Below, piece by piece: positions 1,152 to 29,112 of a stretch of 64,000 nucleotides of DNA. The notes under the pieces were generated by a model. The model searched no databases and had not been told where the DNA came from. It saw only the letters and a program-made list of their open reading frames with translations. Location: contig JAWOEX010000022.1 in NCBI GenBank assembly GCA_046482545.1, positions 1-64,000 of the forward strand, written 5' to 3'. Made by a program: the position numbers and the translations under genes. Every line of letters begins with the position of its first letter. Positions within the stretch are counted from its first letter, which is position 1. The DNA comes from Candidatus Thorarchaeota archaeon (GTDB lineage Archaea; Asgardarchaeota; Thorarchaeia; Thorarchaeales; Thorarchaeaceae).

Positions 1152-2066
1152 ATGTCAAACAAAAAAGAAGCTGATAGAATGAAGGATCCGCAGCAGGTAA
1201 TTACAGACGCTACAATTCGTTTACTCACGAAAGCTGCAACAGAGCTGCCTGATGAAGTTGAGACGGCTCTTCGTGCTGCTTATGAGCGTGAGACTAACGA
1301 TAATGCGAAGACACAGTTGTCTGCTATCCTCAAGAATCTGGAAATTGCATCCACTGGCGTACCCATGTGCCAAGATACAGGCATAATGATTTTCTATCTG
1401 AAGGCTGGATACAATTTTCCTTACTTGAGTGAAGTAGAGGATGCATTAGCCAAAGCGACGAGGAAGGCAACCAAGAACGTTCCACTCAGACCGAATGCCG
1501 TGAATCCAATCGTTGGAGGCAATTCGGGAGACAACACCGGTGAGAAAATCCCATGGCTTAACTGGGAACTAGTACCCGGTGATTCTTTGGAGATTACTGC
1601 ATTTCCCAAAGGCGGGGGTAGTGAGAACGTGAGTATAGTCGGGATGTTGAAACCCGGTGTTGGTCTGGCCGGTGTAAAGAAGCTGGTCGTGGACAATGCC
1701 ATGAGTTACATGGGTAAGGCGTGTTCTCCAAACATCATTGGTGTCGGAATCGGCGGTGGAGCAGATATCAGTCTGAAGATTGCAAAGAAGTCACTATTAC
1801 GGCCACTCAATGAAAGGCACCCAGAGCCTGAAGTAGCTAAAATCGAAGAAGAGCTCATCGAGGCTTTGAATGCTACAGGCATAGGTCCAATGGGACTCGG
1901 TGGGAAGACTACTGTTCTTGATGTTAAGGTTGACTATGCTATGCGCCATCCTGCGAGTCTTCCTGTAGGAGTTGCTGTACAATGCTGGGCTGCAAGACGG
2001 AGCACAGCAACCATTTCGAAGGATCTCGAAGTAGAGTATATCACGCATCCATTGGAGGGAAAGTAA
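1152..2066 (+). CDS. fumA: Class I fumarate hydratase / tartrate dehydratase alpha subunit
   Basis: PMCQDTG, PKGGGSEN, GIGPMGLGG, HPASLPV...QCWA motifs. Confidence 0.9.
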   Translation: MSNKKEADRMKDPQQVITDATIRLLTKAATELPDEVETALRAAYERETNDNAKTQLSAILKNLEIASTGVPMCQDTGIMIFYLKAGYNFPYLSEVEDALAKATRKATKNVPLRPNAVNPIVGGNSGDNTGEKIPWLNWELVPGDSLEITAFPKGGGSENVSIVGMLKPGVGLAGVKKLVVDNAMSYMGKACSPNIIGVGIGGGADISLKIAKKSLLRPLNERHPEPEVAKIEEELIEALNATGIGPMGLGGKTTVLDVKVDYAMRHPASLPVGVAVQCWAARRSTATISKDLEVEYITHPLEGK

Positions 2067-2675
2067 ATGGCAGAATATCATCTAACGACACCCATTTCAG
2101 AAGAAGAAGCTCGTAAACTCAAGGTGGGCGATGTTATCTACGTAAGCGGCAAACATGTCTACACTGCACGAGATGAGGCCCATGAGCGTGCGCTCGATAT
2201 GTATGAAAAGGGAGAGAAAACCCCTGTTGATTTCGAAGGCAGCGTTGTCTACCACGTCGGTCCAGTTGCGCAACAGAAGGACGGAGAATGGAATATAGTC
2301 TCCGCTGGCCCAACAACAAGCATACGTATGGAGATTTTCGAAGATGAATTCCTGCGGAATTACAAGGCTCGCGTCATCATTGGAAAAGGCGGTATGGCTG
2401 ATAGAACACTAGCAGCGCTCAAGGAAGTTGGAGCGGTCTATTGTAGTTTCACTGGGGGTTGTGGCGCTCTTGCTGCTCGAGGCCTAAAGAAAGTCCGAGC
2501 GTATGAATGGTCAGACCTTGGAATGCCAGAAGCGTTGTGGGTGATTACAGCAGAACAGTTCGGGCCGCTGATGGTAACTATGGACTCCCATGGTAACAGT
2601 CTGCATGATGATGCAGAGGATCGAGTGAGCAACAGAAAGGCAGAAGTCTACTCGAAAATTGGTATAGAAGAATAG
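2067..2675 (+). CDS. fumB: Class I fumarate hydratase / tartrate dehydratase beta subunit
   Basis: TARDEAH, GPTTSIRM, IGKGGM, DLGMPEA, MDSHGNSL motifs; coupled to alpha subunit. Confidence 0.9.
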   Translation: MAEYHLTTPISEEEARKLKVGDVIYVSGKHVYTARDEAHERALDMYEKGEKTPVDFEGSVVYHVGPVAQQKDGEWNIVSAGPTTSIRMEIFEDEFLRNYKARVIIGKGGMADRTLAALKEVGAVYCSFTGGCGALAARGLKKVRAYEWSDLGMPEALWVITAEQFGPLMVTMDSHGNSLHDDAEDRVSNRKAEVYSKIGIEE

Positions 2676-2704
2676 GTAACTGATTAGCATTGTATAATAG
2701 ATCT

Positions 2705-2745
2705 GTAGCAGGGGGTCGTTCCCTGCTACTCCAGTTTGTTTGTTC
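2705..2745 (+). terminator. Stem-loop followed by T-rich tract after fumB
   Basis: GTAGCAGGG-ggtcgtt-CCCTGCTAC then tttgtttgttc. Confidence 0.55.
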
Positions 2746-3146
2746 TCTCAGTCTGCAAGCGCCCGTAGAATCGGCACTGATACGCCGTATAAGCAAACCA
2801 ATACCAGTATAAGCACTGCAAAGACTAGAGCCAAATCTTCTCTTTCGATGAGATTAAACCCCCAGTATGGGAATATTATACGATTTTGCCTAATTTAACC
2901 TTTGTTTGACGTATACACGCATTTTGATTTTCGCGCCAAAACAAATCAGCAACCGAAAACCAATATTTTTCCCTTTAGAATTGAATTAACTATAGCTTTT
3001 TTACTGCCGATTCGGCAGAGTTATTTAGTGGACGGGTGTCCCCCGTAAACTACGAAGGCATTTCCCGTTGTTGCTCCGTCTAAAAAGAACCTTTCCAACT
3101 AGCAGAGTATTTTCAAGAGGCCACCTTACTGATTAAGGAGAGATAA

Positions 3147-5135
3147 GTGAGTTTGACTGACAAAGACAACAAATCCGATGATAGAATTGGTGTATTCGTG
3201 TGCCATTGTGGCAGAAACATAGCTGAAACAGTGGATGTTGAAAAAGTAGCTGCAAAAATCGGTAACAATCCTTCTGTTGTACATACTGAGCATTATGATT
3301 ACATGTGCAGCCAACCGGGCCAAGATCTCATCCAAGAAGCCATTAGTGAACATGAACTCACATCGGTGGTTGTTGCAGCTTGTTCCCCATCTCTCCACGA
3401 ACACACTTTTCGGGATGTCGTAGAACGAGCTGGGATGAACCGCTACAAATGTGAAATAGCGAATATCCGTGAGCAATGTAGCTGGGTTCACACGGACAAG
3501 GGAAAGGCTACGGAAAAAGCAGTACGCATTGCCAGAACCATGGTTGAGAAGGTTGCTGCCAACGAGGAACTGGATTCTATTCAAGTGGACCTTCATCGAC
3601 GAGCCCTTGTTATTGGTGCGGGAATTGCAGGCATCCAAGCAGCTCTTGATATTGCTGATGCTGGTCATGAAGTAATCCTCGTAGAGAAAGAAGCTACAAT
3701 TGGGGGACATATGGCCAAACTGGCAGAGACATTCCCTACATTGGATTGCGCATCATGTATACTAACCCCACGGATGTCAGAAGTAGCTAATCATCCGAAT
3801 ATCATTCTGCTTACCTCCTCAGAAGTTATCGATGTTGAAGGCTACGTCGGCAATTTCAACGTCAAAATTCGAAAAAATCCAACGTATGTGGACCCAGATG
3901 CATGTAATCTCTGTGCTGATTGCGAAGACATATGCCCAGAGTTCACGCTATCCGATTTCGACGAAGGCCTTACATTCCGAAGACCAATCTACATTCCATT
4001 CCCACAGGCAATTCCTTCTACCTATACAATTGACATTGATGCCTGTCTGAATCCTCGGGGAATGAAGCACATAGTCTGTTCTAAGTGTGAAGAAGTATGT
4101 GAGGCAGATGCCATTGATTATGACCAGAAGCCCGAGATTATTGAAATAGACGTAGGAGTAATGATACTAGCAACCGGCTATGAACTATATTTACCTGAGA
4201 ATATTGGGGAATATGGTGCAGGCGCTTATCCGGATGTTATTACATCGCTACAATTTGAGCGTCTACTGTCACCAAATGGTCCGACAAGTGGTATCCCACG
4301 ACGCCCAAGTGATGGCAAGATACCTCAAAGAATTGCGTTTATCCATTGTGCTGGTTCAAGAGATGAGAATCACAATGAGTACTGCTCAGCTATCTGTTGT
4401 ATGTATTCTAGCAAACATGCTCTACTTTTCCATGAGCATTATCCGAATGCTGAAGTATACAATTTCTACATTGACCTTAGAGCTTCGGGCAAGAACTATG
4501 AGCAGTTTATTAATCGAGCTCGCGAAGAAGCGGGGGTAAATTATGTCCGAGGAAAAGTCTCTAGGGTTTTCGAACAGGATGGAAAAGTCACTGTTTTTGG
4601 GGTTGATACGCTGAAGGGAGAGCGGTTAGAAGAACAATTTGACATGGTTGTTCTGGCACTGAGCATGGTAGCTCCAAAGGGTGTAAGAGACTTAGCTACT
4701 AAGTTAGGGGCTCAATATGATGAATATGGGTGGATGAAAGAGGAACACCCGAAACTGAGACCCGTTGAGTCTCCCACTTCTGGTATTTTTGTTGCTGGAC
4801 TCGCACATGGTCCAAAAGATATTCAGACCACAGTAGCTCAAGCTAGTGGAGCCGCCAGCAAAGCATTGGATTTGTTATCGCATAATCAGATATCACATCC
4901 TCCTATGGTCTCACGGGTTGATCGGGATCTATGTTCTGGTTGTCGACTCTGTGTGAGTGTGTGTCCCTATGGTGCGATTTCAATGGATAACGGCAAAGCC
5001 AAGGTAGAAGAAGTGTTGTGCGAAGGGTGTGGGTCTTGTGCATCAACCTGCCCGGCTGGAGCTATTGATTTAATCAATATGACAGATAGACAAGCCATGG
5101 ATATGATACACGCAATTACCGGGGGGATTCGGTAA
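3147..5135 (+). CDS. hdrA: Heterodisulfide reductase subunit A (electron-bifurcating flavoprotein)
   Basis: GVFVCHCG, AACSP, ANIREQCSW, GAGIAG, TFPTLDCASC, CAGSRD..YCSAICC, C-terminal 2x[4Fe-4S]. Confidence 0.95.
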   Translation: MSLTDKDNKSDDRIGVFVCHCGRNIAETVDVEKVAAKIGNNPSVVHTEHYDYMCSQPGQDLIQEAISEHELTSVVVAACSPSLHEHTFRDVVERAGMNRYKCEIANIREQCSWVHTDKGKATEKAVRIARTMVEKVAANEELDSIQVDLHRRALVIGAGIAGIQAALDIADAGHEVILVEKEATIGGHMAKLAETFPTLDCASCILTPRMSEVANHPNIILLTSSEVIDVEGYVGNFNVKIRKNPTYVDPDACNLCADCEDICPEFTLSDFDEGLTFRRPIYIPFPQAIPSTYTIDIDACLNPRGMKHIVCSKCEEVCEADAIDYDQKPEIIEIDVGVMILATGYELYLPENIGEYGAGAYPDVITSLQFERLLSPNGPTSGIPRRPSDGKIPQRIAFIHCAGSRDENHNEYCSAICCMYSSKHALLFHEHYPNAEVYNFYIDLRASGKNYEQFINRAREEAGVNYVRGKVSRVFEQDGKVTVFGVDTLKGERLEEQFDMVVLALSMVAPKGVRDLATKLGAQYDEYGWMKEEHPKLRPVESPTSGIFVAGLAHGPKDIQTTVAQASGAASKALDLLSHNQISHPPMVSRVDRDLCSGCRLCVSVCPYGAISMDNGKAKVEEVLCEGCGSCASTCPAGAIDLINMTDRQAMDMIHAITGGIR

Positions 5136-5557
5136 TGCCTTTCGAGCCGAAAATAACGGCTTTCTTGTGCAAATGGTGTGGGTACGCCGGTGCAGATATG
5201 GCTGGAACCAGTCGAATCAAATATCCCCCAACTGTAACCCCAGTACGTTTTCCGTGTACTGGAAGAGTTGACTTGTCTCATATTCTCGAGGCTCTTAGAG
5301 AGTCTGATGGTGTTCTCATTGCGGGTTGTCATACCCCCAATGACTGTCACTATATCCAGGGCAACTATCAAGCATTCAAACGGATTACGGTTCTCAAAAT
5401 TTTGCTGAAACAGATGGGAGTGAATCCAAAGCGGGTTCGTCTCGAGTGGATTAGCGCCAGTGAAGGCCGAAAATTCGCTGAAACAATTCAAGCGTTCACT
5501 GATGAATTACGGGGTCTTGGACCTTTTCTCATGGAACAAAATGAGGTAGTGCAATGA
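5135..5557 (+). CDS. mvhD: Methyl-viologen-reducing hydrogenase delta subunit
   Basis: FLCKWCGYAGAD, PCTGRV, GCH..DCHY, EWISASEG. Confidence 0.95.
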   Translation: MPFEPKITAFLCKWCGYAGADMAGTSRIKYPPTVTPVRFPCTGRVDLSHILEALRESDGVLIAGCHTPNDCHYIQGNYQAFKRITVLKILLKQMGVNPKRVRLEWISASEGRKFAETIQAFTDELRGLGPFLMEQNEVVQ

Positions 5558-6534
5558 AGAAGGCAAGACTGGCTGTAGGATATGGTTCAATCTGTGGTGG
5601 CTGTGATGTTGCTTTCACAGATGTAGGTACAAAGCTCGCTGACTTGGCTGAGGTTGCGGAGATAATATATTGGCCTGCAGTCGTAGACGGAAAAATTGAA
5701 CAGCTAGAGGAAGTCAGCAATATTGATATTGGTGTGTATTTTGGTGCAGTCAGAACTGACGAGCACGAGACAGTTCTAAAACTTCTGGAGAAAAAATCTG
5801 ATGTCCTTGTTGCCTTCGGTACGTGTTCATGTTACGGCGGCATTCCCGGTTTAGGAAATGTAGAAACACGAGAATCGCTTCTTGCGACTGCATATTCTAA
5901 TGCACCTAACACGAGAACTGAAGGTGTCCCTAGCTTGGACGAAATCACAATCGAAAAAATGAAGATGCCCAAGCTACGTGAATATACTTCTTCACCCGCA
6001 GACCTCGTTGAATTCGACATATTCGTTCCCGGGTGCCCACCACCTGTTCAATCTGTGATTGACTTGATTGACTTTGTGGCAGATTATGTGGAAAATGGTA
6101 ATGTTCCAGATGCTCTTTTCGTTGCAGAGGAGGGAACCGTCTGCGAATACTGTGAACGAGAAAAACCCGACAAGATTTCAATAGACAAAGTGATGAGAGT
6201 CCACGAAAGTGATTTGGATGAGAATGAGTGCTTTTTGAGCCAAGGTGTTCTCTGTTTCGGTCCAGTTACCCGAGCCGGATGTGGGGAATCTCCTAGGTGC
6301 ACCTCTAGAAACATGCCCTGTCGTGGATGTTTTGGTCCCACTCCAAAAATACGAGATCAAGGCACAAAATTCCTTTCCAGTATAGCATCATCTATTATGT
6401 TGGGTAAAGAAAAGCAGGTAAGCGAGGAAGAGCTGATACGACTTCTAACAGAAGGGATTATCGATCCGGTTGGACTTTTCTATAGATTTGCGCTTCCAGT
6501 AGCAATAATCAACCGAAAACATCAGGAGAAATGA
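5554..6534 (+). CDS. mvhG: Group 3c [NiFe]-hydrogenase small subunit
   Basis: CGGC, AFGTCSCYGGIPG, PGCPP, CFLSQG..CFGPVTRAGC, PCRGCFGP. Confidence 0.93.
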   Translation: MKKARLAVGYGSICGGCDVAFTDVGTKLADLAEVAEIIYWPAVVDGKIEQLEEVSNIDIGVYFGAVRTDEHETVLKLLEKKSDVLVAFGTCSCYGGIPGLGNVETRESLLATAYSNAPNTRTEGVPSLDEITIEKMKMPKLREYTSSPADLVEFDIFVPGCPPPVQSVIDLIDFVADYVENGNVPDALFVAEEGTVCEYCEREKPDKISIDKVMRVHESDLDENECFLSQGVLCFGPVTRAGCGESPRCTSRNMPCRGCFGPTPKIRDQGTKFLSSIASSIMLGKEKQVSEEELIRLLTEGIIDPVGLFYRFALPVAIINRKHQEK

Positions 6535-8027
6535 TAGACATGACGGAACTTGATATTGGATCTGATACGGGAATCATTAGGATTCAGCCTTGTACTCGTC
6601 TCGAGGGAGAAGGAAAAATCAACATCATTCTAGACGATGATGGAAATGTGAAGGATGCCTATTTCCAAGTACTTGACTACAGAGGATTTGAAGGCTTTCT
6701 GAAGGGAAGACAAGCCGAAGAAATCCCGAGGATTGCATCACGAGTCTGCGGTGTCTGTTCTTGGGCTCACCATATGGCTTCAGCAAAGGCTATGGATCAA
6801 ATCTTTGGGCTTGAGCCAACACCTGCCAGCAAGAAGCTTCGGGAGTTGTCCTATAACGCTCATAATCTCCATTCACATCTCCTTCACTTCTTCGTATTGG
6901 CCTCACCTGACTATTTCCTGTCGGAGGATAGCGAACCCTCAACTCGGAACATAATTGGATTACTTCAGAAATACCCTGATATAGCAAAAGACGCCCTCCG
7001 ATATCATGCCGACGCAGAAAAGATTCAGGAAATCATAGCTGGAAAGGCTGTTCATCCCGTTATTGCCTTACCCGGGGGAGTATCCCGACTTATCAACGAA
7101 GAAGAGAGAGATACTATTGAAGAGATGTCCAAGGAAATTCTCGACTTCACACTTGATTTTCACGATTTCTTCAAAGAGAACATAATCGAGAATGACAAGT
7201 ATCATGATTTATTCTTTGGCGATTTATATCGGCTGGAAACCTACTATATGGGTCTCGTCGATGAGAATGACCAGATGAATTTCTATGACGGCGACTTGAA
7301 GGTTGTAAGTCCCAACGGAGATGACAGCTTTGCGTTTTCGCCAGATGATTATCTTGATCACATAGAAGAAATTAGTCAACCATGGAGCTATTCGAAATTC
7401 CCATATCTGAAAAATATAGGTTGGAAGGGACTTGTTGATGGAGAAGAAAGTGGTATGTACAGAGTAAATGCGTTACCACGACTCAACGTCACAGATGGGA
7501 TGCCAACCCCTCTTGCTCAGGAGGCTTACGAGGTGTTTACTGAGAAACTAGGTAAACCAGCTCATGCCACTTTGGGTTACAACTGGGCGCGGTTGATTGA
7601 ATCAGTATACAACATTGAGCGTATGCTTGAGCTACTTGATGACCCTGATATTATTCATGGAAATCCCCGGAATAAGGATGGGAATTTTATCGGCGAGGGT
7701 GTTGGATGTGTTGAAGCTCCAAGGGGTACATTGATTCATCACTACAAAGCAGATGAAAAGGCACGAATCACATCTGCAAATCTCATTGTGCCGACAACGA
7801 TGAATAATGCAGCGATATCATTGGACGTAAAAAAGGCGGCCAAGGCTTTGGTACATGGCCGAGAGGTTTCCGAGGGGATTCTGAACCGAGTTGAGATGGC
7901 ATATCGAGCCTACGACCCCTGTCTTTCGTGTTCAACTCACTCGTTGCCTGGCAAGTGTCCATTGGAGTTAGTATTTCGTGATACCAATGGAAATGTGATA
8001 AAACGACTGAGGAGGGGAACAAATTAG
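6531..8027 (+). CDS. mvhA: Group 3c [NiFe]-hydrogenase large subunit
   Basis: TRLEGEG, RGFE, L1 RVCGVC, EAPRG, L2 DPCLSCSTH plus cleavable C-terminal extension. Confidence 0.95.
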   Translation: MIDMTELDIGSDTGIIRIQPCTRLEGEGKINIILDDDGNVKDAYFQVLDYRGFEGFLKGRQAEEIPRIASRVCGVCSWAHHMASAKAMDQIFGLEPTPASKKLRELSYNAHNLHSHLLHFFVLASPDYFLSEDSEPSTRNIIGLLQKYPDIAKDALRYHADAEKIQEIIAGKAVHPVIALPGGVSRLINEEERDTIEEMSKEILDFTLDFHDFFKENIIENDKYHDLFFGDLYRLETYYMGLVDENDQMNFYDGDLKVVSPNGDDSFAFSPDDYLDHIEEISQPWSYSKFPYLKNIGWKGLVDGEESGMYRVNALPRLNVTDGMPTPLAQEAYEVFTEKLGKPAHATLGYNWARLIESVYNIERMLELLDDPDIIHGNPRNKDGNFIGEGVGCVEAPRGTLIHHYKADEKARITSANLIVPTTMNNAAISLDVKKAAKALVHGREVSEGILNRVEMAYRAYDPCLSCSTHSLPGKCPLELVFRDTNGNVIKRLRRGTN

Positions 8028-8521
8028 CAGTTACAACGACTAAGCCTATTCAACAGAAGAAGGTCATAGTCTATGGTTGGGGTAACCCGATATTCGGTGA
8101 CGACGCCGCAGGCATTCAAGCAGCCAAACAGCTCAAGAACTGTAGTATACCCAGTACAGTTGAAGTGTCTTGGTCATCTTCATCACCTTTCTCAGTTGCC
8201 GAAGGATTTCTAGATTATGAGCAAGCTATTCTGATAGATGCTTTTGTAGACACGGATAGAAAAGATGGAGAAATAATTCGCTTTAACGGGCTTGGCAATC
8301 AGACACCTGTGAGAATGCTTACCCCCCATACAGCGAGTATTATCGAGGTTTTGAAGGTCTACCAAGAACTCTACCCTCTGAGATTTCCTAGTCGTGTAGT
8401 TGTTTACGGTCTGTGTATCAGTAATCCAGAAATCAGCAGTGAACTTACCTATGGAATCGAAACGGGAATTACGAACATAATCAGATTGATACAACACGAA
8501 CTAGCAGGTGAATCAGCTTGA
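8024..8521 (+). CDS. Hydrogenase maturation endopeptidase (HyaD/HycI family); true start lies upstream of the ORF-track call 8165 and is non-canonical
   Basis: Same frame upstream of 8165 reads KVIVYGWGNPIFGDDAAG (catalytic motif), later ILIDA and TPH; follows mvhA. Confidence 0.85.
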   Translation, partial: LAVTTTKPIQQKKVIVYGWGNPIFGDDAAGIQAAKQLKNCSIPSTVEVSWSSSSPFSVAEGFLDYEQAILIDAFVDTDRKDGEIIRFNGLGNQTPVRMLTPHTASIIEVLKVYQELYPLRFPSRVVVYGLCISNPEISSELTYGIETGITNIIRLIQHELAGESA

Positions 8522-8889
8522 ATGAATTGGAAGAAAGGATAAGCGAAATCTCTGGCGTGAATGTAGACGCTTGTTATCAATGTGGTAAGTGTTCTGCAGG
8601 TTGCCTCTTTACGGCTCATATGGACCTATTGCCGCATCAAGTGCTCATGTACATTCAACGGGGTGACGAAAGTGTACTTGACAAGGAGACCCCGTGGATT
8701 TGTGCGAGTTGCTTTACTTGCTCAGTACGGTGTCCGCGCGGAGTCAACGTCGCAGCCGTGATGGAGTCACTTCGAGAGATAAGAATCAGAGAGAGAGGTT
8801 ATGAAACCATCGATTTGCGGAAAGTTGAAAATCTCAAAGATTTGCCTCAGATTGCATTGACCGCCGCAGCACAGAAATTGACGTGGTAG
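8518..8889 (+). CDS. hdrC: Heterodisulfide reductase subunit C (short)
   Basis: CYQCGKCSAGC and WICASCFTCSVRCP. Confidence 0.9.
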   Translation: MNELEERISEISGVNVDACYQCGKCSAGCLFTAHMDLLPHQVLMYIQRGDESVLDKETPWICASCFTCSVRCPRGVNVAAVMESLREIRIRERGYETIDLRKVENLKDLPQIALTAAAQKLTW

Positions 8890-9746
8890 TCGTGATACAT
8901 GTAATATATTATCCCGGATGCAGTCTGCGTAACTCTTATCCAGAGTTCGAGAAGAGCGCACTAGAAGTGTGCAAGAAGCTGGATATTCAACTAGAAGAGA
9001 TACCAGAATGGAATTGCTGTGGTGTTAATTTCAGTCTCTCCGATAATATTATGCGTCATCTTGGTGCAGTTCGTACCTTGATAAACGCTCAAGAAGAGCT
9101 TGGTTCCACAGCCGGTAACGAGATTACTACACTATGCTCTATGTGTTACAACGTTCTGAAAAGAACCAATGTTGCATTGAAAACAGAACAAGATACCTTA
9201 GAAAATGTGAATGATTACATAGATGACGCACCAAACTACCAGGGGCGTCTTCAAGTTTCTCATTTCTTGCAGTTGCTTAGAGATAGAATAGGTTTTGATT
9301 CTATCTTCGACAAAATCACAAAACCTCTTTCAGGTTTGAAAATCGCACCCTATTATGGATGTGCTTTATTGAGACCTGAAAATATCGCTGTGGATACACA
9401 AAAGAGCCCAACGATTATGGAAGAATTCATTCGTGCATTAGGGGCTACATCAATCAATTATCCCTACAAGACTGAATGTTGTGGCAACTATCATGCTGCT
9501 TTCAGAAAAGAGATTGTAGAAATCCGAAGCAAAGGGATAGTGGAATCCGCAGTCTCAGCAGGAGCTGACTTGATTATTTCTCCGTGTCCATTGTGTACGT
9601 ACAATCTTGGACTTGGCGTGGAGAACTTGGGCAAAGATGTACCCGTCCTATTCTTCACACAGGTTCTAGCTATGGCTTTAGAAGTTAATCCGTACTTATC
9701 ACCCGAAAGGGAAGAATTGGTTTTGAAGAATCTACAAGGGAGTTGA
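8883..9746 (+). CDS. hdrB: Heterodisulfide reductase subunit B
   Basis: YYPGC, WNCCG, CSMC, PYYGC, ECCG, CPLC (two CCG domains). Confidence 0.93.
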   Translation: MVVVIHVIYYPGCSLRNSYPEFEKSALEVCKKLDIQLEEIPEWNCCGVNFSLSDNIMRHLGAVRTLINAQEELGSTAGNEITTLCSMCYNVLKRTNVALKTEQDTLENVNDYIDDAPNYQGRLQVSHFLQLLRDRIGFDSIFDKITKPLSGLKIAPYYGCALLRPENIAVDTQKSPTIMEEFIRALGATSINYPYKTECCGNYHAAFRKEIVEIRSKGIVESAVSAGADLIISPCPLCTYNLGLGVENLGKDVPVLFFTQVLAMALEVNPYLSPEREELVLKNLQGS

Positions 9747-9750
9747 TTAT

Positions 9751-10497
9751 ATGTCACAAAATCAAGAAGTTGAGAAGGAAGCCCGACCCAAGAGCGAAAT
9801 GGCAACCATTTACATAATGGGTAAGCCGTATGAAGTGCCAAGTGAACTCACAATAATGCAGGCGCAAGAATACGCAGGCTATCGGCTCATTAGAGGTGTT
9901 GGTTGCCGAGGCGGCTATTGTGGTGCTTGCACCACAATCTACAGGAAAAAGGATGATTACAAACTCTATATCGATCTCGCATGTCAAACAAAAGTAGAAG
10001 ATGGTATGTATCTTGTACAGCTACCATTTGTTCCTGCTCAAAAGCCCAAATGGGGTTTAGATGAGCTTGAGGCTACTTCTGAAGAGGTTATCCGCATCTT
10101 TCCTGAGATAACTAGGTGCGTCTCCTGCAATACCTGTACACAGGCCTGCCCCCAGAATTTGGAGCCAATGAGGGCAATCCAAGCCATACGGCGTGGTGAT
10201 CTTGAGAAAGCTGCCGATTTGAGTTTTGACTGTATATCCTGTGGTGCTTGTTCAGCAAGATGCCCCGCAGAAATAACGCACTACCATGTATTTCAACTTA
10301 TCCGACGGCTTTACGGAAAATACATCCAACCAAGGTCCGAACATACAGCCCGTCGAGTCAGTGAGATTGAAGAAGGGACGTATGAGGAACAGATGGACAA
10401 ATTGATAGAACTCTCTGAAGACCGGATTAGAGAACTATTTCTCGATGTACGAAGCGGCAACGAATTCAATCTCAATCAAAATGGCGGTGAAGAATAA
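9751..10497 (+). CDS. SdhB/FrdB-like Fe-S protein ([2Fe-2S] + 2x[4Fe-4S])
   Basis: GCRGGYCGAC..LACQ; CVSCNTCTQACP; CISCGACSARCP. Confidence 0.85.
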   Translation: MSQNQEVEKEARPKSEMATIYIMGKPYEVPSELTIMQAQEYAGYRLIRGVGCRGGYCGACTTIYRKKDDYKLYIDLACQTKVEDGMYLVQLPFVPAQKPKWGLDELEATSEEVIRIFPEITRCVSCNTCTQACPQNLEPMRAIQAIRRGDLEKAADLSFDCISCGACSARCPAEITHYHVFQLIRRLYGKYIQPRSEHTARRVSEIEEGTYEEQMDKLIELSEDRIRELFLDVRSGNEFNLNQNGGEE

Positions 10498-12209
10498 TGG
10501 CAGACCCATATCCCGACCATATGATGGAATCAATAAGACGAGTCAATGCTACCCGAGATGAACGCAAAGACCAAGAGTTCGACAGGATTCCTGAAGAGGA
10601 ATCTGACGAGCTTCTGAGACAATGGCACCCCGACTATAGGAAATCGGATCCCGCTTTCTTCCGAGAGCTAAGTGTGGGCCCGTCAAGAGGAAAAATCGTA
10701 CCAACTGAGGTTGCAAATGTTCTCGAAGCCTATCCACGTGTCGACCCTGCTGAAGTAGATTTGTCCGAAGTAGAATACAGCACCGAGCTTCTCGTAATTG
10801 GTACTGGTGGGGCTGGTCTTTCTGCTATCCTTTGGGCCAATAATGAAGGAATAGCAATAGAAGATATCCTGGTCTCTACAGCCCTTAGATTGGGTGACTC
10901 AAATAGCAAAATGAGTCAGGGTGGTATACAAGCATGTGATGGAGAGGATGATTCTCCTATGATCCATTGGCTTGATGTCTTGTCCGGAGGCCATTGGACA
11001 AACGACAGGCCGCTTGCTCGAGACTTGGTGGAGAATGGTCCACTAGCAATCAAATGGCTTGAGTCGTTAGGAGCTACATTCGATAAAGAATCGGACGGAG
11101 ATATGCAGCTACTCATGGCAGGAGGAGCCTCACGGAAGCGCATACACAGCTGTAAGGACTATACTGGTCTTGAACTAACGAGAGTTCTTATGGATGAGGC
11201 GCTTAGCCGAGGAATTAATACCCTTGAGTTCTGTCCTACTGTTTCTCTTCTAACAGACGGAAGTGGAGCTGTTGCTGGTGGCCTCCTATGGAACATGGAA
11301 ACGGAAGAATACCATGTTGTGCGTTCAAAGGCTACTGTGATTGCAACAGGTGGGTTTGGCCGTTTACACGTTGCTGGATTCCCCACTACCAACCACTATG
11401 CCGCAACATGTGATGGTTTGGTTTCAGCTTATAGAGTAGGAGCAGACATTATCCACATGCAATCAACACAATATCATCCCACAGGTGCGGCATATCCGGA
11501 GCAAATTGTTGGTTTGCTTGTTACAGAAAAATGTCGAAGTATGGGTGCACAACTTGTGAATGATAATGGTCAAGCATTCATCTATCCGTTGGAGCCACGA
11601 GATGTAGAATCTGCTGCAGAGCTGAAAGAAATAGGGGAAGGAAGAGGTATTACTACCCCCACGGGTCAAGATGGAATTTGGCTTGATACGCCCATGATAG
11701 ACAAGAAGAATGGTGAGGGAGCTCTTGAAGAAGGGCTTGCGGCCATATATCGCCTTTTCACACGTTTTGGGATAGACCCAACGGAATATCCCGTCCTTGT
11801 ACACCCCACACTCCACTATCAGAATGGTGGCATTGCAATTAACCCTGATACACAAGTGGTAGAGCCTGACGGAAACCCGATTGAGAATCTGTTTGCTGCA
11901 GGCGAAACCACCGGCGGTGTACATGGTGATAACCGATTGATGGGCAACTCGTGGCTCGAAATTGTCGTGTTTGGCCGTAAGTCAGGAATAAACGCTGCAA
12001 AACATGCAAAGAAGGCAAGGATGCCAAAGAAATCTGACCTATCACTTGCGCATCTCGACAGGTATTCTAAGGAACTGCAGGATGCTGGAATCGAAACTGA
12101 TCGTCGGACCCCAATTATCTTGCCCAATTATCTTGGTCAGAACACCATGAAAGCTACTGGTTATGGCAAAGAGAAACCGTTCAAACGGCGGCTCGATTTA
12201 TTCGCCTGA
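10497..12209 (+). CDS. SdhA/FrdA-family flavoprotein
   Basis: GTGGAG, ATGG, QYHPTG, LVTEKCR, EPRD, HYQNGG, GGVHGDNRLMGNS. Confidence 0.88.
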   Translation: MADPYPDHMMESIRRVNATRDERKDQEFDRIPEEESDELLRQWHPDYRKSDPAFFRELSVGPSRGKIVPTEVANVLEAYPRVDPAEVDLSEVEYSTELLVIGTGGAGLSAILWANNEGIAIEDILVSTALRLGDSNSKMSQGGIQACDGEDDSPMIHWLDVLSGGHWTNDRPLARDLVENGPLAIKWLESLGATFDKESDGDMQLLMAGGASRKRIHSCKDYTGLELTRVLMDEALSRGINTLEFCPTVSLLTDGSGAVAGGLLWNMETEEYHVVRSKATVIATGGFGRLHVAGFPTTNHYAATCDGLVSAYRVGADIIHMQSTQYHPTGAAYPEQIVGLLVTEKCRSMGAQLVNDNGQAFIYPLEPRDVESAAELKEIGEGRGITTPTGQDGIWLDTPMIDKKNGEGALEEGLAAIYRLFTRFGIDPTEYPVLVHPTLHYQNGGIAINPDTQVVEPDGNPIENLFAAGETTGGVHGDNRLMGNSWLEIVVFGRKSGINAAKHAKKARMPKKSDLSLAHLDRYSKELQDAGIETDRRTPIILPNYLGQNTMKATGYGKEKPFKRRLDLFA

Positions 12210-12372
12210 GATTCCCAGTTGGAGCATAGATCTCTGCAGGATGGATTTGCTGGACTATCCCCATCGGACTAAATTCCTTCTTTGGGATAGTCCTTCCATA
12301 CCTTACAAGTTATATAGCGCCTCCATATAGACCGATGTCAAAACGAAGGTATTCGCCATCGGAGGCTTTTGT

Positions 12373-14073
12373 TTGGAAGATTTACCTGATTACAAGACTA
12401 TTCTCTGCGATGTATTGGTTGTTGGTGCTGGCGGTGCTGGTTGCCGTGCCGCAATTGAAGCAGAACAAAACAATGCTGACGTGATTATGCTTAGCAAGGA
12501 GATGCTCGGTAAGGCTCACACCTCAATGGCTGAGGGAGGCATGAATGTAGCCATTGGTAATGTTGATCCCGACGATGATTCTTCAGTACACTTCAAAGAT
12601 ACTGTTGTTGGTGGCAATTACATCAACAATCAAGAACTAGTTGAGATACTTGTTGATGAAGCTCCAGATCGAATCTATGACCTAGAAGACATGGGTGCAG
12701 TATTTGACAGAACCCCTCAAGGAAAGATTGCACAACGACCGTTCGGGAAACAAACCTATCGCAGAACAGCCTATGCGTCAGATCGTACTGGCTCAGAAAT
12801 AATGGTCACACTTACTGAAGCAATTCGAAAGAGATCTGTTCGCGTCTTCGATGAAATGTTTGCTACCAAGATTCTTGTTAAGGACGGCCGAGCAGCAGGT
12901 GTTACTGCCATCGACCTGAAGTATGGCGACTATATTGTCTTCCGAGCAAAATCTATCGTTATGGCTACCGGAGGAGCCGGACGAGTTTTCAAAGTTACGA
13001 GCAATGCAGCCCTTGATGTTGGTGATGGTTATGCCATGGCGTACGAAGCTGGCTGCGATATGATTGATATGGAAATGGTGCAGTTTCATCCGACGGGCAT
13101 GGTTAGGCCCGAATCGGCAAAAGGTCGCCTTGTCACAGAAGCCGTTCGTGGAGAAGGTGGAATTTTACTTAACAATAAAGGTGAGCGTTTCATGGACAAA
13201 TATTATCCGAAGGTTATGGAGCTGGCAGGCCGAGATCAGGTCGCAAGGTCCATTATGACCGAGGTGAGAGAAGGCAGAGGTTCTCCGGATGGTGGTGTCT
13301 ATCTCAGTATTGCTCACTTGCCAAAGCGTATCATCGAATACCGGCTTGAGAGTATGATTGAGCAGTTTGGCGATGCTGGTGTAGATATACGCAATGAACC
13401 AATGCAGGTATCCCCCACAGCTCATCATTTCATGGGTGGCATCAAGGTGGATACAAATGCCTCCTCAACCTTGCCTGGTCTATATGCTGCAGGTGAATGT
13501 ATGGGTGGTCTTCATGGTGGAAACCGATTAGGTGGTAATGCCCTAGCTGATACTCAAGTCTTTGGTGCACTTGCCGGTGCTAATGCGGCTAGGTTTGCCA
13601 AGGAACACGTACTCCCAGGTATGGACATTCAAGATGTGAAAAAGGAATTCAACAGGGTTGAGGCGATGTTGCGCCGGAAGGATGGGATTTCCCCTGCTGA
13701 TGCGCGCGATGAACTGACTAGTCTGATGTGGGACAAGGTACAGATATTCCGAGAAGACAAGGGTCTTGCTAAGGCAGTTGAAGAACTCAAACGCATCGAG
13801 AAGGAAGTTGTTCCCAACATCAAAGTAGATGTACCAATCAAGCGATTCAATCCTGGTTGGCATCAAGCTATTGAGTTTGGACACATGGTGATAACTTCCC
13901 GCTTGGTCGCGGAGGCAGCTTTCATGCGAAAGGACAGCAGAGGCGCCCATTATCGCAGTGACGCTGACCGCAATGATAAGGGCTATTACAACATCGTTAT
14001 TCGCAAAGGCGAAGAAGGCGAACCCGAGCTTCGGAAAGAAGATCTCGTGATAACTCGCATCACACCACCATAA
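12373..14073 (+). CDS. tfrA: Thiol:fumarate reductase flavoprotein subunit
   Basis: GAGGAG, AHTSMAEGG, QRPFG, QFHPTG, LVTEAVRGEGG, HHFMGG, HGGNRLGGNAL, SRGAHYR; followed by a CCG-containing partner. Confidence 0.9.
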   Translation: MEDLPDYKTILCDVLVVGAGGAGCRAAIEAEQNNADVIMLSKEMLGKAHTSMAEGGMNVAIGNVDPDDDSSVHFKDTVVGGNYINNQELVEILVDEAPDRIYDLEDMGAVFDRTPQGKIAQRPFGKQTYRRTAYASDRTGSEIMVTLTEAIRKRSVRVFDEMFATKILVKDGRAAGVTAIDLKYGDYIVFRAKSIVMATGGAGRVFKVTSNAALDVGDGYAMAYEAGCDMIDMEMVQFHPTGMVRPESAKGRLVTEAVRGEGGILLNNKGERFMDKYYPKVMELAGRDQVARSIMTEVREGRGSPDGGVYLSIAHLPKRIIEYRLESMIEQFGDAGVDIRNEPMQVSPTAHHFMGGIKVDTNASSTLPGLYAAGECMGGLHGGNRLGGNALADTQVFGALAGANAARFAKEHVLPGMDIQDVKKEFNRVEAMLRRKDGISPADARDELTSLMWDKVQIFREDKGLAKAVEELKRIEKEVVPNIKVDVPIKRFNPGWHQAIEFGHMVITSRLVAEAAFMRKDSRGAHYRSDADRNDKGYYNIVIRKGEEGEPELRKEDLVITRITPP

Positions 14074-14089
14074 TGGAGGTGCAAAGACA

Positions 14090-15658
14090 ATGTCCAATCA
14101 AATTGTCAAAACGAAAGTTCTGCGATATAACCCAGATATCGATGATGCTCCATACTTCGAAGAGTATGATGTGGAATTCGAACCGGGCATGACCGTGCTG
14201 GATGTCCTTCTGTATATCCAAGACAAATACGACTCGAGTCTGGCATTCCGATGGGAATGCAGAGGCGGACAATGTGGCTCCTGCGCGGTTACTGTGAATA
14301 CAATCGCGCGGATTGCCTGTAGGACCAAAGTCAATCCCAACGAGGAATTGGTTATTGAGCCAATGGATAAGATGCCTGTCATAAAAGACCTTGTTGTCGA
14401 CTTGGAGCAGACAATTGGAAGGTTGCGGCGAACGCGACCGTACGTGTCACGAGATAAGAAATCAGAGCGCCCAGAAATAATTCATTCCAGCGAGATTGAA
14501 AAACTTCGTGAGATTCGGAAATGCATCGAGTGCAGTGCATGCATTGCGAACTGTCCAGTTATCAAAGAAACTTGGGATTATGCAGGACCCATGATTATCA
14601 GGCAGCTTGCTCGACTGGAGCTTGACCCACGCGATGTAGAAGACAGAGTATCAATGGCTCTGGATGAATCTGTCTACTATTGCACAACTTGCAAACTTTG
14701 TGAGGACATTTGTCCCAAAGACATCAACATACCAAGTCTGGCCGTAGAACTACTAAGGGCCAAGGCTGTGGATGCTGGCTATCCACTGCCTGAGGGGGCA
14801 CAGACCTTCGTGGACCGAATGCGGGACACCGGTCGATCCGTATCTAAGAAGGAAACCCCACTCCTTGAGGAGATTGAGACGGAGGAGTTCTTTGTAGAGA
14901 ATCCACTGGGTCGTGTCGCATTCTTCACAGGTTGTCTCATTGACTACAGGATGCAGAATACTGGGATGGCACTCATTGAGGTACTCAATCAGAACAATAT
15001 TGATGTGGTTGTACCCAAGGAACAATGGTGTTGTGCAAGTCCTGCATTCAGAACCGGGGCTATGGAAACCGCCAAGGAAGCTGCAAGGAAAACCACGCGA
15101 ATTTTTGAAGAAGCGATGGAGAAGTGGGATTTCGATACGGTCATTGTTGCGTGTGCTGGTTGTGGGAAGACAATGAGAGAGGATCACTATCCGCTTATCG
15201 AGGATGAGCGTGGGGAACCACCGAAGTTCAAAGTTATGGATATGTTGGAGTACCTAATTAATGTGGTTGGAAAAGACAAGATGGTGCCACCGAAAGGTGA
15301 GATTGATTTGAAGGTTACCTATCACGAACCCTGCCACCTAGGCAGAGGTCAAGGAGTTGTTGAAGAGCCGTTGGAAGTCCTGAAGATGATTCCTGGAATT
15401 GAGTACATTGACGATCCATACAAGAACCGCTGCTGTGGTGCTGGTGGTGGTGTGCGTGCAGGACAGCGTGATCTCTCCATGAAAATCGCTGATACCAAAC
15501 GGGAGTATATCCAAGACACAGGAGCGGAGCTCGTAACTACCGAGTGTCCCTTCTGCACAATTCAATTGAAGGATTTGTTGAAGGGTACAGGTATCAAAGC
15601 GATGTACCTGCCAGACTTGCTTCTAGAATCCTATCGCGAGGGTGGCCAAAGCAAGTAG
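14090..15658 (+). CDS. tfrB: Thiol:fumarate reductase Fe-S/CCG subunit
   Basis: SdhB-like N-terminus (CRGGQCGSC, two CxxCxxCxxxCP) fused to HdrD/B-type CCG domains (FFTGC, WCCASP, HEPCHL, CCGAGGG, CPFC). Confidence 0.9.
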   Translation: MSNQIVKTKVLRYNPDIDDAPYFEEYDVEFEPGMTVLDVLLYIQDKYDSSLAFRWECRGGQCGSCAVTVNTIARIACRTKVNPNEELVIEPMDKMPVIKDLVVDLEQTIGRLRRTRPYVSRDKKSERPEIIHSSEIEKLREIRKCIECSACIANCPVIKETWDYAGPMIIRQLARLELDPRDVEDRVSMALDESVYYCTTCKLCEDICPKDINIPSLAVELLRAKAVDAGYPLPEGAQTFVDRMRDTGRSVSKKETPLLEEIETEEFFVENPLGRVAFFTGCLIDYRMQNTGMALIEVLNQNNIDVVVPKEQWCCASPAFRTGAMETAKEAARKTTRIFEEAMEKWDFDTVIVACAGCGKTMREDHYPLIEDERGEPPKFKVMDMLEYLINVVGKDKMVPPKGEIDLKVTYHEPCHLGRGQGVVEEPLEVLKMIPGIEYIDDPYKNRCCGAGGGVRAGQRDLSMKIADTKREYIQDTGAELVTTECPFCTIQLKDLLKGTGIKAMYLPDLLLESYREGGQSK

Positions 15659-15991: not shown

Positions 15992-16534
15992 TTAGGAAAT
16001 AATGAAAGACTCTCGGCACATATTACAGGTGACTTTTTCGCCTCGAACAGCAATCTTTTCCATCTTTCGGCCGCAGAATGGACACACTACAATATTCTTT
16101 GGTGCAGGTCCACTACCAGTCCCCAGCAATAAATCTCCTCTCTCTCGGTCTATACGGCCGGAGAGTTCACGTCCATCTAGCAGGTCCGTCAATATCTTAG
16201 CCGTATTGATTACACTTACGCCAGCTTCCTGAGCAATCCGTTCAATCGAAATTCTTCTGAATTTCTGTACAGTTCTCTTTACTGCGGTAACGGGATTTGT
16301 TGTGATCTCTCCTTCTTGCTTAGTTGGTTCTGTTTCTGGATGTGGTCGAAGTGGGGCTTTCACTCCTTGCGCTGCAGAAAGACCAGATGGCTTGCCCCCA
16401 GCTTTCTCTAACTCCTGTTGAAGTTTTTCCATTCTGCTGTTGTATTCTTCTTCAGAGACCAGTCCGCGCATATAATCTAAATCAAGATCGCTGATTTTGT
16501 TTTGAATGTGCTCCACCGAACTGGGATCTGTCAT
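15992..16534 (-). CDS. Hypothetical protein: SHOCT-like N-terminus, PCI-like winged helix, C-terminal Zn ribbon
   Basis: GLVSEEEY; ISIERIAQEAGVS...LLDGRELSGRIDRERG; CPFCG...CNMC. Confidence 0.65.
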   Translation of the reverse strand: MTDPSSVEHIQNKISDLDLDYMRGLVSEEEYNSRMEKLQQELEKAGGKPSGLSAAQGVKAPLRPHPETEPTKQEGEITTNPVTAVKRTVQKFRRISIERIAQEAGVSVINTAKILTDLLDGRELSGRIDRERGDLLLGTGSGPAPKNIVVCPFCGRKMEKIAVRGEKVTCNMCRESFIIS

Positions 16535-16596: not shown

Positions 16597-17232
16597 TTAA
16601 TCAGTTAGCCTTTTGCCTTCAGGAAGCTCGTTGAGTAAGAGTCCTTCTTCTTCAGCATCTTCTATTGCATCTAAACCCCTCTTGAAGCCTATGTTCTCAA
16701 GGGCACCGGCGGCAGTCTGACGTACAAATAGAGAATCATCATGTAGTGCCTCTATCAATGCATCAACTACCTTCTCATCCTTCCGTTCTCCCAGCTGTAC
16801 TGTAGCAAACATCCGGACCATGTATCTTGGGTCATCAAGACAGTTCATTAGCTGCTTTGTGGCTCTCTTATCGCCAATTTTTCCCAACCTATCAATGGCT
16901 CCCAATGCAACCTGCTGATCTTCGCTTCGTAACTCTCTCACAAGGTCATCTATCTCAAAGCTGGCATCCTCATCGGTGTCATCTACTTTTTTACTCTTCC
17001 TAGTTTTCTCTACTAGTTTGGTTGCAGTGATGGTTATCTCTTCGGCCTTTTCCACACTAATCCCTTTCACCTCTTCAGCTATTTTGGTGGGGTTACTCGT
17101 GCTAAGATCTTCCAAAGAGTAGTAACCTGCTTTCCTTAGTCGTGCACTGAGGGTTGGACCGATACCCGATATACGTGTTAGATTTGGAGCGCCCTTCCTT
17201 TCGTTTGTTTCTTCATCGGAAGCCTTGTTCAA
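16597..17232 (-). CDS. Helix-hairpin-helix + HEAT (PBS-lyase-like) repeat protein
   Basis: ISGIGPTLSARLRKAGY / VKGIS HhH; repeated L.D....VR..AA.ALG units. Confidence 0.75.
   Translation of the reverse strand: MNKASDEETNERKGAPNLTRISGIGPTLSARLRKAGYYSLEDLSTSNPTKIAEEVKGISVEKAEEITITATKLVEKTRKSKKVDDTDEDASFEIDDLVRELRSEDQQVALGAIDRLGKIGDKRATKQLMNCLDDPRYMVRMFATVQLGERKDEKVVDALIEALHDDSLFVRQTAAGALENIGFKRGLDAIEDAEEEGLLLNELPEGKRLTD

Positions 17233-26901: not shown

Positions 26902-29112
<2,211 letters not shown>

Follow-up and report, generated by a model that had tools for sequence, protein, structure and literature searches.

Gene content of the locus

The 64,000-nucleotide stretch of DNA analysed here (positions 1 to 64,000 of contig JAWOEX010000022.1 of a Candidatus Thorarchaeota archaeon, assembly GCA_046482545.1, and referred to throughout as the window) carries a cluster of genes for fumarase, [NiFe] hydrogenase, heterodisulfide reductase (Hdr) and fumarate-reductase-type proteins. 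The genome (G000) is of the Thorarchaeota type, is 3.05 Mb in size on 45 contigs with a completeness of 98.9%, and is assigned here to genus g1 of family f1. Profile searches with Pfam and NCBIfam identified thirteen genes on the forward strand between positions 1152 and 15658 (Table 1). These comprise fumAB, a nine-gene block running from hdrA to a flavoprotein gene designated frdA', and tfrAB. All genes listed in a preliminary description of this DNA were recovered on this one strand, together with hypA and hypE nearby. Gene content and conservation indicate that the partner of this Hdr set is likely its own anchor-less fumarate reductase, FrdA'B', to which it would be wired directly, and not a thiol cycle involving TfrAB.

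Table 1. Features of the locus and its flank in window coordinates, with profile matches
Feature	Position	Strand	Supporting match
fumA, class I (Fe-S) fumarate hydratase alpha subunit	1152-2066	+	PF05681 308 bits; NF004885 324 bits (cut-off 276)
fumB, class I fumarate hydratase beta subunit	2067-2675	+	PF05683 160 bits; TIGR00723 208 bits
spacer fumB/hdrA, 471 nt, upstream edge of the block	2676-3146		
hdrA, FAD and poly-[4Fe-4S] electron-bifurcating subunit, not fused to MvhD	3147-5135	+	NF040770 831 bits, profile positions 1-641
mvhD, [2Fe-2S] adaptor	5135-5557	+	PF02662 159 bits
mvhG, [NiFe] hydrogenase small subunit, group 3c type	5554-6534	+	PF01058; NF045875 (VhuG) 169 bits
mvhA, [NiFe] hydrogenase large subunit, all-Cys form, VhuU part fused	6531-8027	+	NF041785 (VhuA) 380 bits; VhuU match at residues 445-472
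hydrogenase maturation endopeptidase, no canonical start codon	8048-8521	+	TIGR00072 70 bits (cut-off 47), profile positions 2-145 read from 8048
hdrC', short 2x[4Fe-4S] subunit, 123 aa	8518-8889	+	NF041779 66 bits, far under cut-off; two CxxCxxCxxxC(P) motifs
hdrB', CCG-domain subunit, distinct subfamily between HdrB and SdhE	8883-9746	+	TIGR03288 146 bits; SdhE model 126 bits
frdB' (sdhB-like in the preliminary description), 248 aa, 2Fe-2S and two 4-Cys [4Fe-4S] motifs	9751-10497	+	Fer2 and Fer4 dicluster Pfam matches; TIGR00384 41 bits, under cut-off
frdA' (sdhA-like in the preliminary description), 570 aa, soluble fumarate-reductase-type flavoprotein	10497-12209	+	PF00890 (FAD_binding_2) only
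tfrA, thiol:fumarate-reductase-type flavoprotein	12373-14073	+	NF004900 689 bits (cut-off 718); PF00890 and PF02910
tfrB, SdhB-like part fused to two CCG domains	14090-15658	+	NF004898 528 bits (cut-off 385); Fer2_3, Fer4_8, 2x CCG
hypA	17360-17752	+	TIGR00100 102 bits
hypE	18845-19858	+	TIGR02124 357 bits

Both Ni-binding cysteine pairs were found to be present in MvhA (RVCGVC, residue 71; DPCLSC, residue 462), with the matches of MvhA and MvhG to the VhuA and VhuG models lying under the NCBIfam equivalog cut-offs. A hydropathy scan (Kyte-Doolittle) revealed no membrane-spanning segment in the proteins of the locus, no stretch of 19 residues exceeding a value of 1.67, and the statement of the preliminary description that no membrane anchor is encoded holds.

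The gene of the hydrogenase maturation endopeptidase was found to contain no ATG, GTG or TTG before codon 40, the first such codon being situated at 8165. The resulting open reading frame (ORF; 8165-8521) is truncated, as the N-terminal motif GWGNPIFGDD is encoded upstream of this position, and the motif is in frame in all three available genomes of the genus (G000, G027 and G093). A further member of the family, G209, possesses an ATG where the window has ATA. The start codon is probably ATT (8048) or ATA (8066), 20-38 nt past the mvhA stop codon.

Architecture of the locus

The nine genes of the block were found to overlap or to lie no more than 20 nt apart, those from 8518 to 12209 either overlapping or being separated by no more than 4 nt, whereas the block is flanked by gaps of 471 nt (fumB/hdrA) and 163 nt (frdA'/tfrA). 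These long gaps at the block edges, compared to the tight spacing within it, suggest that the locus is made up of three units (fumAB, the hdrA-frdA' block and tfrAB) and not of one operon. Comparison with relatives points the same way. In the tfrA neighbourhoods of 14 f1 genomes, belonging to eight other genera, the order fumA-fumB-tfrA-tfrB was uninterrupted in every case. The same quartet was identified in families f13 and f15, with fumAB and tfrBA being adjacent but convergent in f12. Among 20 loci outside the genus, for which stretches of approximately 7 kb or more on each side were fetched, no hdr or mvh match was found beside tfrA in any. The earlier reading of these genes as a single locus is consequently retained with regard to their co-location, while spacing and the synteny of relatives divide what had been presented as one functional unit into three.

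A block of approximately 9 kb between fumB and tfrA was found only in G000, G027 and G093, that is, in the window's own genus. In G209, the fourth member of f1 in question, a block that is 76% identical lies on a different contig from fumAB and tfrAB and is thus not linked to either. Within f1, orthologues of MvhA and FrdA' were confined to genus g1 and G209, with other members encoding different Vhu-type hydrogenases that are approximately 40% identical. These gene orders are most simply read as the insertion of the block into a fumAB-tfrAB quartet that already existed, and the adjacency of tfrAB to hdr genes would then be due to the block sitting inside this pre-existing quartet.

No insertion scar was identified; blastn of the two spacers of the window against the fumB-tfrA spacers of the 14 relatives matched the coding end of fumB only. 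No Rfam match was obtained anywhere in the window, and a scan for sigma-70 promoters and intrinsic terminators, of a type ill-suited to archaea, gave results at or below shuffle expectation. The spacer between fumB and hdrA contains no convincing ORF, its small ORFs having the appearance of chance occurrences; one of these, of 28 codons and strongly hydrophobic (2748-2834, reverse strand), is probably of this kind. The fumB-tfrA spacer of most Thorarchaeota-family relatives (L052-L062) was observed to be unusually long, at approximately 390-550 nt, with that of four others being 94-172 nt.

The flavoprotein FrdA' and its probable substrate

FrdA' is characterised by an N-terminal extension of approximately 95 residues, a short C-terminus and an Asn at the position of the His that binds FAD covalently, the latter replacement being as found in soluble fumarate reductases. 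Alignment of 120 sequences of the FrdA' family showed the motifs H327-PTG, R368-D, H440-Y and N479-R480-L to be invariant. The equivalent His and Arg residues of FrdA and SdhA bind and protonate the dicarboxylate, an assignment based on E. coli FrdA. A structural model of FrdA' was generated with AlphaFold2 using the 120-sequence alignment (predicted local distance difference test score, pLDDT, of 88.4), an earlier run with 14 sequences (pLDDT 64) having been discarded. Foldseek searches with this model returned E. coli FrdA (1kf6_A) as the best match, and all of the top 50 matches were Frd or Sdh proteins. Identity of FrdA' as NadB or AprA was ruled out on the basis of these structural matches and of a separate NadB-like gene on contig C22 of the genome. 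TfrA, by comparison, which shares 33% identity with FrdA', was found to retain the His to which FAD is bound covalently and to possess the motifs HPTG, TEAVRGEGG, RD, HHFMGG and NRLGGN.

A wider survey covered the 80 best loci of the FrdA' family, out of at least 600 matching stretches in a species-level genome collection; these loci are distributed among Thermoproteota, Thermoplasmatota, Bathyarchaeia, Heimdallarchaeota, Bipolaricaulota, Cloacimonadota, Bacillota and other phyla. In about a quarter of them a fumarase gene lies within 10 kb (fumA in 19 of the 80), and this in several arrangements, the fumarase genes being divergent in Bathyarchaeia and Borrarchaeota and directly downstream in Lachnospiraceae and Acutalibacteraceae. 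In a metagenome-assembled genome (MAG) of the Desulfurococcales (L073), fumAB is situated upstream and the order fumAB-hdrA-mvhDGA-hdrCB-frdB'A' is exactly that of the window. In a Lachnospiraceae MAG (L144, 1714-13045), twelve genes follow one another in the order mdh-hdrB-hdrC-hdrA-flxD-flxC-flxB-flxA-frdB'-frdA'-fumA-fumB, so that this operon holds the entire oxaloacetate-to-succinate branch together with an NADH-fed Hdr module; it is followed by panD and panC (pantothenate). Because of the invariant dicarboxylate-site motifs, the structural match of the model to Frd and the recurrent linkage to fumarase, the substrate of FrdA' is most likely fumarate.

Hdr subunits associated with FrdA'B'

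Both CCG motifs of HdrB' were found to be complete (CX31CCX38CXXC and CX38CCX33CXXC), with all ten cysteines intact. On the HdrB model TIGR03288 (cut-off 345 bits), the score of HdrB' given in Table 1 compares to 245-382 bits for five paralogues encoded elsewhere in the genome, one of which passes the cut-off (382 bits). Scores in a similar range to that of HdrB' (133-163 bits) were obtained with its orthologues in a Heimdallarchaeum, a member of the Lachnospiraceae and a genome of Asgard family f20. On the SdhE model (NF042965) HdrB' remains well below the cut-off of 500 bits. In a tree of HdrB sequences, 74 HdrB' proteins linked to FrdA'B' formed one clade, with the five paralogues and the second copies of other loci falling outside it, and the placement of the Thorarchaeota sequences in this tree mirrors that in the FrdA' tree. 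This separate clade, the score range of its own and the mirrored placement are the reasons for regarding HdrB' as dedicated to FrdA'B'. HdrA was found to be 50-59% identical to its orthologues in flavoprotein-linked operons, compared to 44% for the closest full-length paralogue in its own genome. As judged from these sequence comparisons, HdrB', and by identity values also HdrC' and HdrA, co-evolve with FrdA'B'.

Distribution and evolutionary origin of the block

In the 80 best loci, the neighbours of frdA' were found to be frdB' (78 loci), hdrB (59), hdrC (58), hdrA (54), mvhD (42) and mvhA (19), with tfrA present in a single locus. The family itself is large, at least 8000 proteins matching at E ≤1e-60. 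Its archaeal members occur in Culexarchaeia, Desulfurococcales, Bathyarchaeia, Thermoplasmatota, Thermococci and Theionarchaea, and its bacterial members in Bipolaricaulota, WOR-3, Cloacimonadota, Spirochaetota, Chloroflexota, Aminicenantes and many gut Clostridia. Proteins 48-51% identical to FrdA' are encoded in loci of Clostridia that have the seven Flx-Hdr and two Frd genes also described for Pseudoclostridium thermosuccinogenes (see below).

Among 301 sampled Asgard genomes, approximately 60 were found to encode full-length orthologues of FrdA' (matches with E <1e-95) that are 50-59% identical. These are concentrated in families f5, f27, f16, f17 and f20, are rare in f1 (4 of 77 genomes) and were not found in any of the 68 genomes of f9. 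Families f5 and f27 contain sequences identical to named Heimdallarchaeota records, and f16 adjoins a Borrarchaeota record in the FrdA' tree. Twenty Asgard loci were fetched, most of them with a full hdrA-mvhDGA set, and in 18 of the 20 hdrC-hdrB is situated directly upstream of frdB'A'. The exceptions are L042, in which hdrCB is located further upstream in the same cluster, and L039, in which there is none.

The pair frdB'A' was also observed alone, in an uncultured bacterium (L102, 8763-11190) and in a Spirochaetaceae MAG (L142, 9144-11674). Neighbouring genes in these two loci include those for glutamate dehydrogenase, a glutamate-synthase-like protein, DUF6754 and an SLBB protein.

The FrdA' tree was found to be discordant with the species tree, with Asgard sequences placed in at least five positions among those of TACK, Thermoplasmatota and bacteria. 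A vertical origin within Asgard was rejected, the approximately unbiased (AU) test excluding a single Asgard clade with a log-likelihood difference of 207 (p 3.6e-66); the group in this test was the taxonomic phylum, and the test was run after a first tree had been seen. The Thorarchaeota FrdA' clade has a long stem, its nearest neighbours being Culexarchaeum, Desulfurococcales, Bathyarchaeota and Asgard families f17 and f20. FastTree placed it beside Culexarchaeum and Desulfurococcales, and a quick IQ-TREE run nearest to f20, Bathyarchaeota and Culexarchaeum; due to this difference in placement, a donor lineage cannot be named. Taken with the recurrent gene neighbourhood, the block is fairly probably a self-contained module, passed on by horizontal exchange, in which an Hdr-type core with flavin-based electron bifurcation would feed a soluble fumarate reductase.

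Genomic context

At least five other hdrB genes were identified in the genome, on contigs C40, C9 and C28. They belong to at least five further hdrCB/hdrA/mvhD sets, located on C40 (1-16000, 79000-91000 and 109000-113000), C9 (1-17000) and C28 (15000-25000). A second Vhu-type hydrogenase is split over the contig ends of C4 (1-1300) and C9. Several hdrA matches in the genome occur in pieces or as very long ORFs (e.g. L151 4668-8213, 1181 aa) and may represent fused, permuted or selenocysteine-containing forms.

The preliminary description presumed the archaeon to lack methyl-coenzyme M reductase, and this agrees with the result of the genome search: McrA, McrB and ComA were not found in the 98.9%-complete genome, and ComD was represented by a ComD-like match under cut-off only, the coenzyme B (CoB) biosynthesis genes not having been searched for. 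DsrC, a candidate protein disulfide substrate, was likewise not found in the genome. The sole route to malate that was found is a malic enzyme on contig C20, which could supply malate to the fumarase.

Genes for a PCI-domain protein, a HEAT-repeat protein, HypA, S8e and HypE were found to be conserved, as in the window, beside the fumAB-tfrAB quartet in most of the 14 relatives that do not have the block. Because hypA and hypE are kept in relatives without the hydrogenase block, their nearness in the window belongs to the old tfrBA-fumBA neighbourhood and says nothing about the Mvh of the block. Between tfrB and hypA, two genes on the reverse strand encode a small PCI-domain protein (15992-16534; PF01399, 25.8 bits, just over cut-off) and a helix-hairpin-helix and HEAT-repeat protein (16597-17232), the position of both being kept in most of the family. 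From 21133 to 47009, the window otherwise appears to contain ordinary archaeal housekeeping genes, namely those for SMC (21133-24723, reverse strand), CDC48 (26917-29112), a protein with PUA and PAPS-reductase domains (31354-33183, reverse strand), a Hef/XPF-type helicase-nuclease (34381-36768), SRP54 (43818-45161) and a DRG-type GTPase (45834-47009). An ORF of 455 residues situated among these (29894-31261, reverse strand) yielded no Pfam match.

Proposed electron flow and alternative explanations

The composite locus would function as follows. FumAB and TfrAB, as an old and conserved Asgard quartet, would catalyse the fumarase and thiol:fumarate-reductase-type steps of a reductive malate-to-succinate branch. 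In the block, H2 would be oxidised by MvhA and its electrons handed on by MvhG and MvhD to HdrA, at whose FAD the pair would be split. One electron would travel uphill from HdrA to ferredoxin, and the other downhill via HdrC' and the two non-cubane clusters of HdrB', the latter serving as a relay as in proteins of the SdhE and TfrB type. From there it would proceed through the three clusters of FrdB' to the non-covalently bound FAD of FrdA', where fumarate produced by FumAB would be reduced to succinate. The predicted net reaction is 2 H2 + fumarate + oxidised ferredoxin giving succinate + reduced ferredoxin + 2 H+, in which a diffusible thiol/disulfide couple would have no part.

This explanation of the locus, with FrdA'B' linked to Hdr, is put forward with moderate confidence. 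FrdB' has no CCG domain and hence no thiol-oxidising site, for which reason FrdA'B' should need an external electron donor. Direct wiring is suggested by HdrC'B' being the only constant neighbours of the pair and by HdrC'B' and FrdB'A' together having the cofactor set of a split TfrAB, and with the frdB'A' pair present in the block, the gene content therefore requires no diffusible thiol pair. The two genes that the preliminary description had listed as sdhB-like and sdhA-like, leaving them without a role, are accordingly identified as the constant fumarate-reductase-like partner of Hdr. The net reaction proposed in that description survives, in that a soluble conversion of H2 and fumarate to succinate and reduced ferredoxin remains the best reading, while FrdA'B' would replace TfrAB as the reductase. 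More generally, it is proposed tentatively that in a sizeable part of the Asgard archaea one MvhADG-HdrABC set may be hard-wired to its own soluble fumarate reductase. For that set, fumarate would take the place of the 'unidentified heterodisulfide' as the high-potential acceptor in H2-driven ferredoxin reduction, and the non-cubane clusters of HdrB would act as a thiol-free relay. The carriers on which this proposal is based are the approximately 60 of 301 Asgard genomes mentioned above, mostly of Heimdall- and Borr-type families together with the present Thorarchaeota genus.

A number of observations weigh against this assignment. The canonical loop motif of Frd and Sdh proteins is T-E-G-x-R-G-E-G-G, from which the T-E-K-x-R loop of FrdA' departs; its Glu344 is nearly invariant, with Ala in its place in two of 14 sequences inspected over their full length. 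The ten cysteines of the disulfide-reducing site are kept in HdrB', which is compatible with a thiol substrate. No hdrB is adjacent in 21 of the 80 loci, although many of the loci without hdr genes are cut by contig ends, and in L102 and L142 no hdr gene lies beside frdB'A', approximately 9 kb of upstream flank being annotated. No recognisable Ldh-type malate dehydrogenase or archaeal phosphoenolpyruvate carboxylase was identified in the genome, and no biochemical report on any member of the FrdA' family was found in a literature search. The likeness to the succinate operon of Pseudoclostridium thermosuccinogenes (see below) is one of matching architecture.

The alternative favoured by the preliminary description is that MvhADG-HdrABC reduces some heterodisulfide with H2 and that TfrAB re-oxidises the resulting thiols while reducing fumarate, the SdhAB-like pair being accessory. 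The proteins themselves are compatible with such a cycle, as TfrB, which scores above cut-off, is a genuine fusion of the Tfr type that includes two CCG domains, HdrB' retains both CCG motifs, tfrAB adjoins the block on the same strand in three genomes of the genus, and the five other Hdr sets of the genome need some acceptor. The recycling of Hdr thiols by Tfr has also been proposed for Sifarchaeia (PMC9723677), Hermodarchaeota (PMC8163825) and Mnemosynellales (bioRxiv 10.1101/2021.08.02.454722, where 'some Asgard lineages' are mentioned as well). The clustering that had been taken as the argument for this cycle is, however, restricted to one genus. The synteny comparison that the preliminary description had itself called for yielded no hdr or mvh match near tfrA in the 20 loci outside it, and elsewhere tfrA is found near the module in one of 80 loci. 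Such a cycle would in addition leave FrdA'B' without a donor, despite it being the most constant partner of HdrCB', and 163 nt separate the block from tfrAB. The absence of ComA, with only a sub-threshold ComD-like match (the search not extending to CoB biosynthesis genes), also counts against it, and for this locus it is considered rather unlikely. A Tfr/Hdr cycle may operate with the other five Hdr sets of the genome, for which the present locus gives no evidence.

The same complex could in principle run in reverse, with succinate oxidised by FrdA'B' and the electrons confurcated by HdrA with those of reduced ferredoxin to evolve H2 on Mvh, as in a syntrophic oxidation of the succinate/propionate type. 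The reactions of group 3c hydrogenases and of Hdr can in principle go either way, the coupling of succinate oxidation to H2 has been proposed for an SdhA/HdrBC cluster of Culexarchaeia (Kohtz et al., PMC9723716), and the Asgard Mvh-Hdr has been interpreted as producing H2 during syntrophic growth (PMC9723677). From standard potentials (+30 mV for succinate/fumarate and approximately -500 mV for ferredoxin, with a mean of approximately -235 mV) it was estimated, however, that H2 would have to stay below approximately 1e-6 atm, and the reductive direction is indicated by the co-location with mdh and fumarase genes in a clostridial lineage that produces succinate, so that operation in reverse appears very unlikely. 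It is similarly improbable that FrdA'B' is not a fumarate reductase and acts on another enoate, a 2-substituted dicarboxylate or aspartate, its linkage to fumarase being coincidental or reflecting a related substrate. FrdA' does differ from characterised Frd and Sdh proteins in its loop, in having TTNHY as an invariant motif, in its N-terminal extension and in the lack of the C-terminal domain, and its scores on the NCBIfam Frd, Sdh and NadB models all lie far under their cut-offs. Against this, the four His and Arg residues for dicarboxylate binding and catalysis are all invariant, fumarase genes occur within 10 kb in about a quarter of the loci in several independent arrangements, accompanied in Clostridia by mdh, and the genome has a separate NadB-like gene. 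The succinate producer P. thermosuccinogenes has furthermore been described with an operon of this type as its fumarate reductase (Koendjbiharie et al., PMC7282089).

If the Hdr-linked FrdA'B' assignment is correct, energy conservation from H2 and fumarate would need neither quinones nor a membrane. For Heimdall-type Asgard archaea that have the orthologous operon, and for one of the Hdr sets of the present genome, gene content names a testable acceptor, namely fumarate, whereas in publications on Asgard metabolism the acceptor of MvhADG-HdrABC is still termed an 'unidentified heterodisulfide' (PMC11291895). The predicted function would apply to an enzyme class that is widespread among gut Clostridia, sediment archaea and candidate phyla. 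The restriction of the tfrAB adjacency to one genus is a caution against reading function from a neighbourhood of this kind.

Comparison with known systems

The methanogen MvhADG-HdrABC, an electron-bifurcating oxidoreductase of H2 and the heterodisulfide of coenzyme M (CoM) and CoB (Wagner et al. 2017, as cited in PMC9723716), shares with the block all six subunit types and the order hdrA-mvhDGA...hdrCB, with [NiFe] motifs, MvhD adaptor and CCG motifs intact. The block differs from it in that HdrB' is divergent (146 bits compared to the cut-off of 345), HdrC' is truncated, Mcr and ComA were not found in the genome, and FrdB'A' is added in the operon.

The tfrAB genes of the window resemble those of Methanothermobacter TfrAB, for which CoM and CoB are the thiol donors (Heim et al. 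1998, as cited in PMC8163825), with TfrB scoring above the NCBIfam cut-off and TfrA possessing the fumarate-site residues; the setting is dissimilar in that no recognisable CoM biosynthesis genes were found in this genome. HdrC'B' and FrdB'A' together resemble a version of TfrAB that is split into four subunits (CCG clusters, ferredoxin clusters, 2Fe-2S and FAD). FrdA' differs from TfrA, beyond the low identity, by having the N-terminal extension and by lacking the C-terminal domain and the covalent-FAD His, and FrdB' by lacking CCG domains. A CCG protein that partners an SdhB/SdhA-type pair is also a feature of type E Sdh and the 8-methylmenaquinol:fumarate reductase (SdhABE). HdrB' scores 126 bits on SdhE compared to 146 on HdrB, with its Heimdall and Lachnospiraceae orthologues scoring level or higher on SdhE. 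Dissimilarities to SdhABE are the distance of HdrB' from the SdhE cut-off, the lack of a quinone or membrane context, and the presence of HdrA and HdrC.

The closest counterparts of the block are published clusters in which an anchor-less iron-sulfur and flavoprotein pair stands beside hdrCB, hdrA and mvhD, often with fumarase, and for which the coupling of fumarate reduction to ferredoxin reduction by bifurcation has been proposed. These are the 'succinate operon' of P. thermosuccinogenes, consisting of fumarase, seven Flx-Hdr genes and a two-gene fumarate reductase, with bifurcation proposed (PMC7282089; Koendjbiharie and van Kranenburg, 2019 preprint 10.20944/preprints201912.0288.v1, as cited there); a cluster of TFR, OGOR, fumarase, Mvh and Hdr genes in Ca. 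Celaenobacter (Williams et al., PMC8542988); and tfrAB-like genes interspersed with flxABCD-hdrABC in reductive tricarboxylic acid cycle clusters of tubeworm symbionts (Rubin-Blum et al., PMC6315080). An SdhA gene adjoining HdrBC genes has likewise been described in Culexarchaeia (PMC9723716). As in the Ca. Celaenobacter cluster, the input is a group 3c Mvh hydrogenase. Unlike the published Hdr-Frd clusters, that of the window has no Kor, OGOR or Flx genes, is found in an Asgard host with a separate TfrAB, and is located exactly between fumB and tfrA. The type of cluster is thus one already predicted in the literature, and the Thorarchaeota genus is a further carrier of a widespread module.

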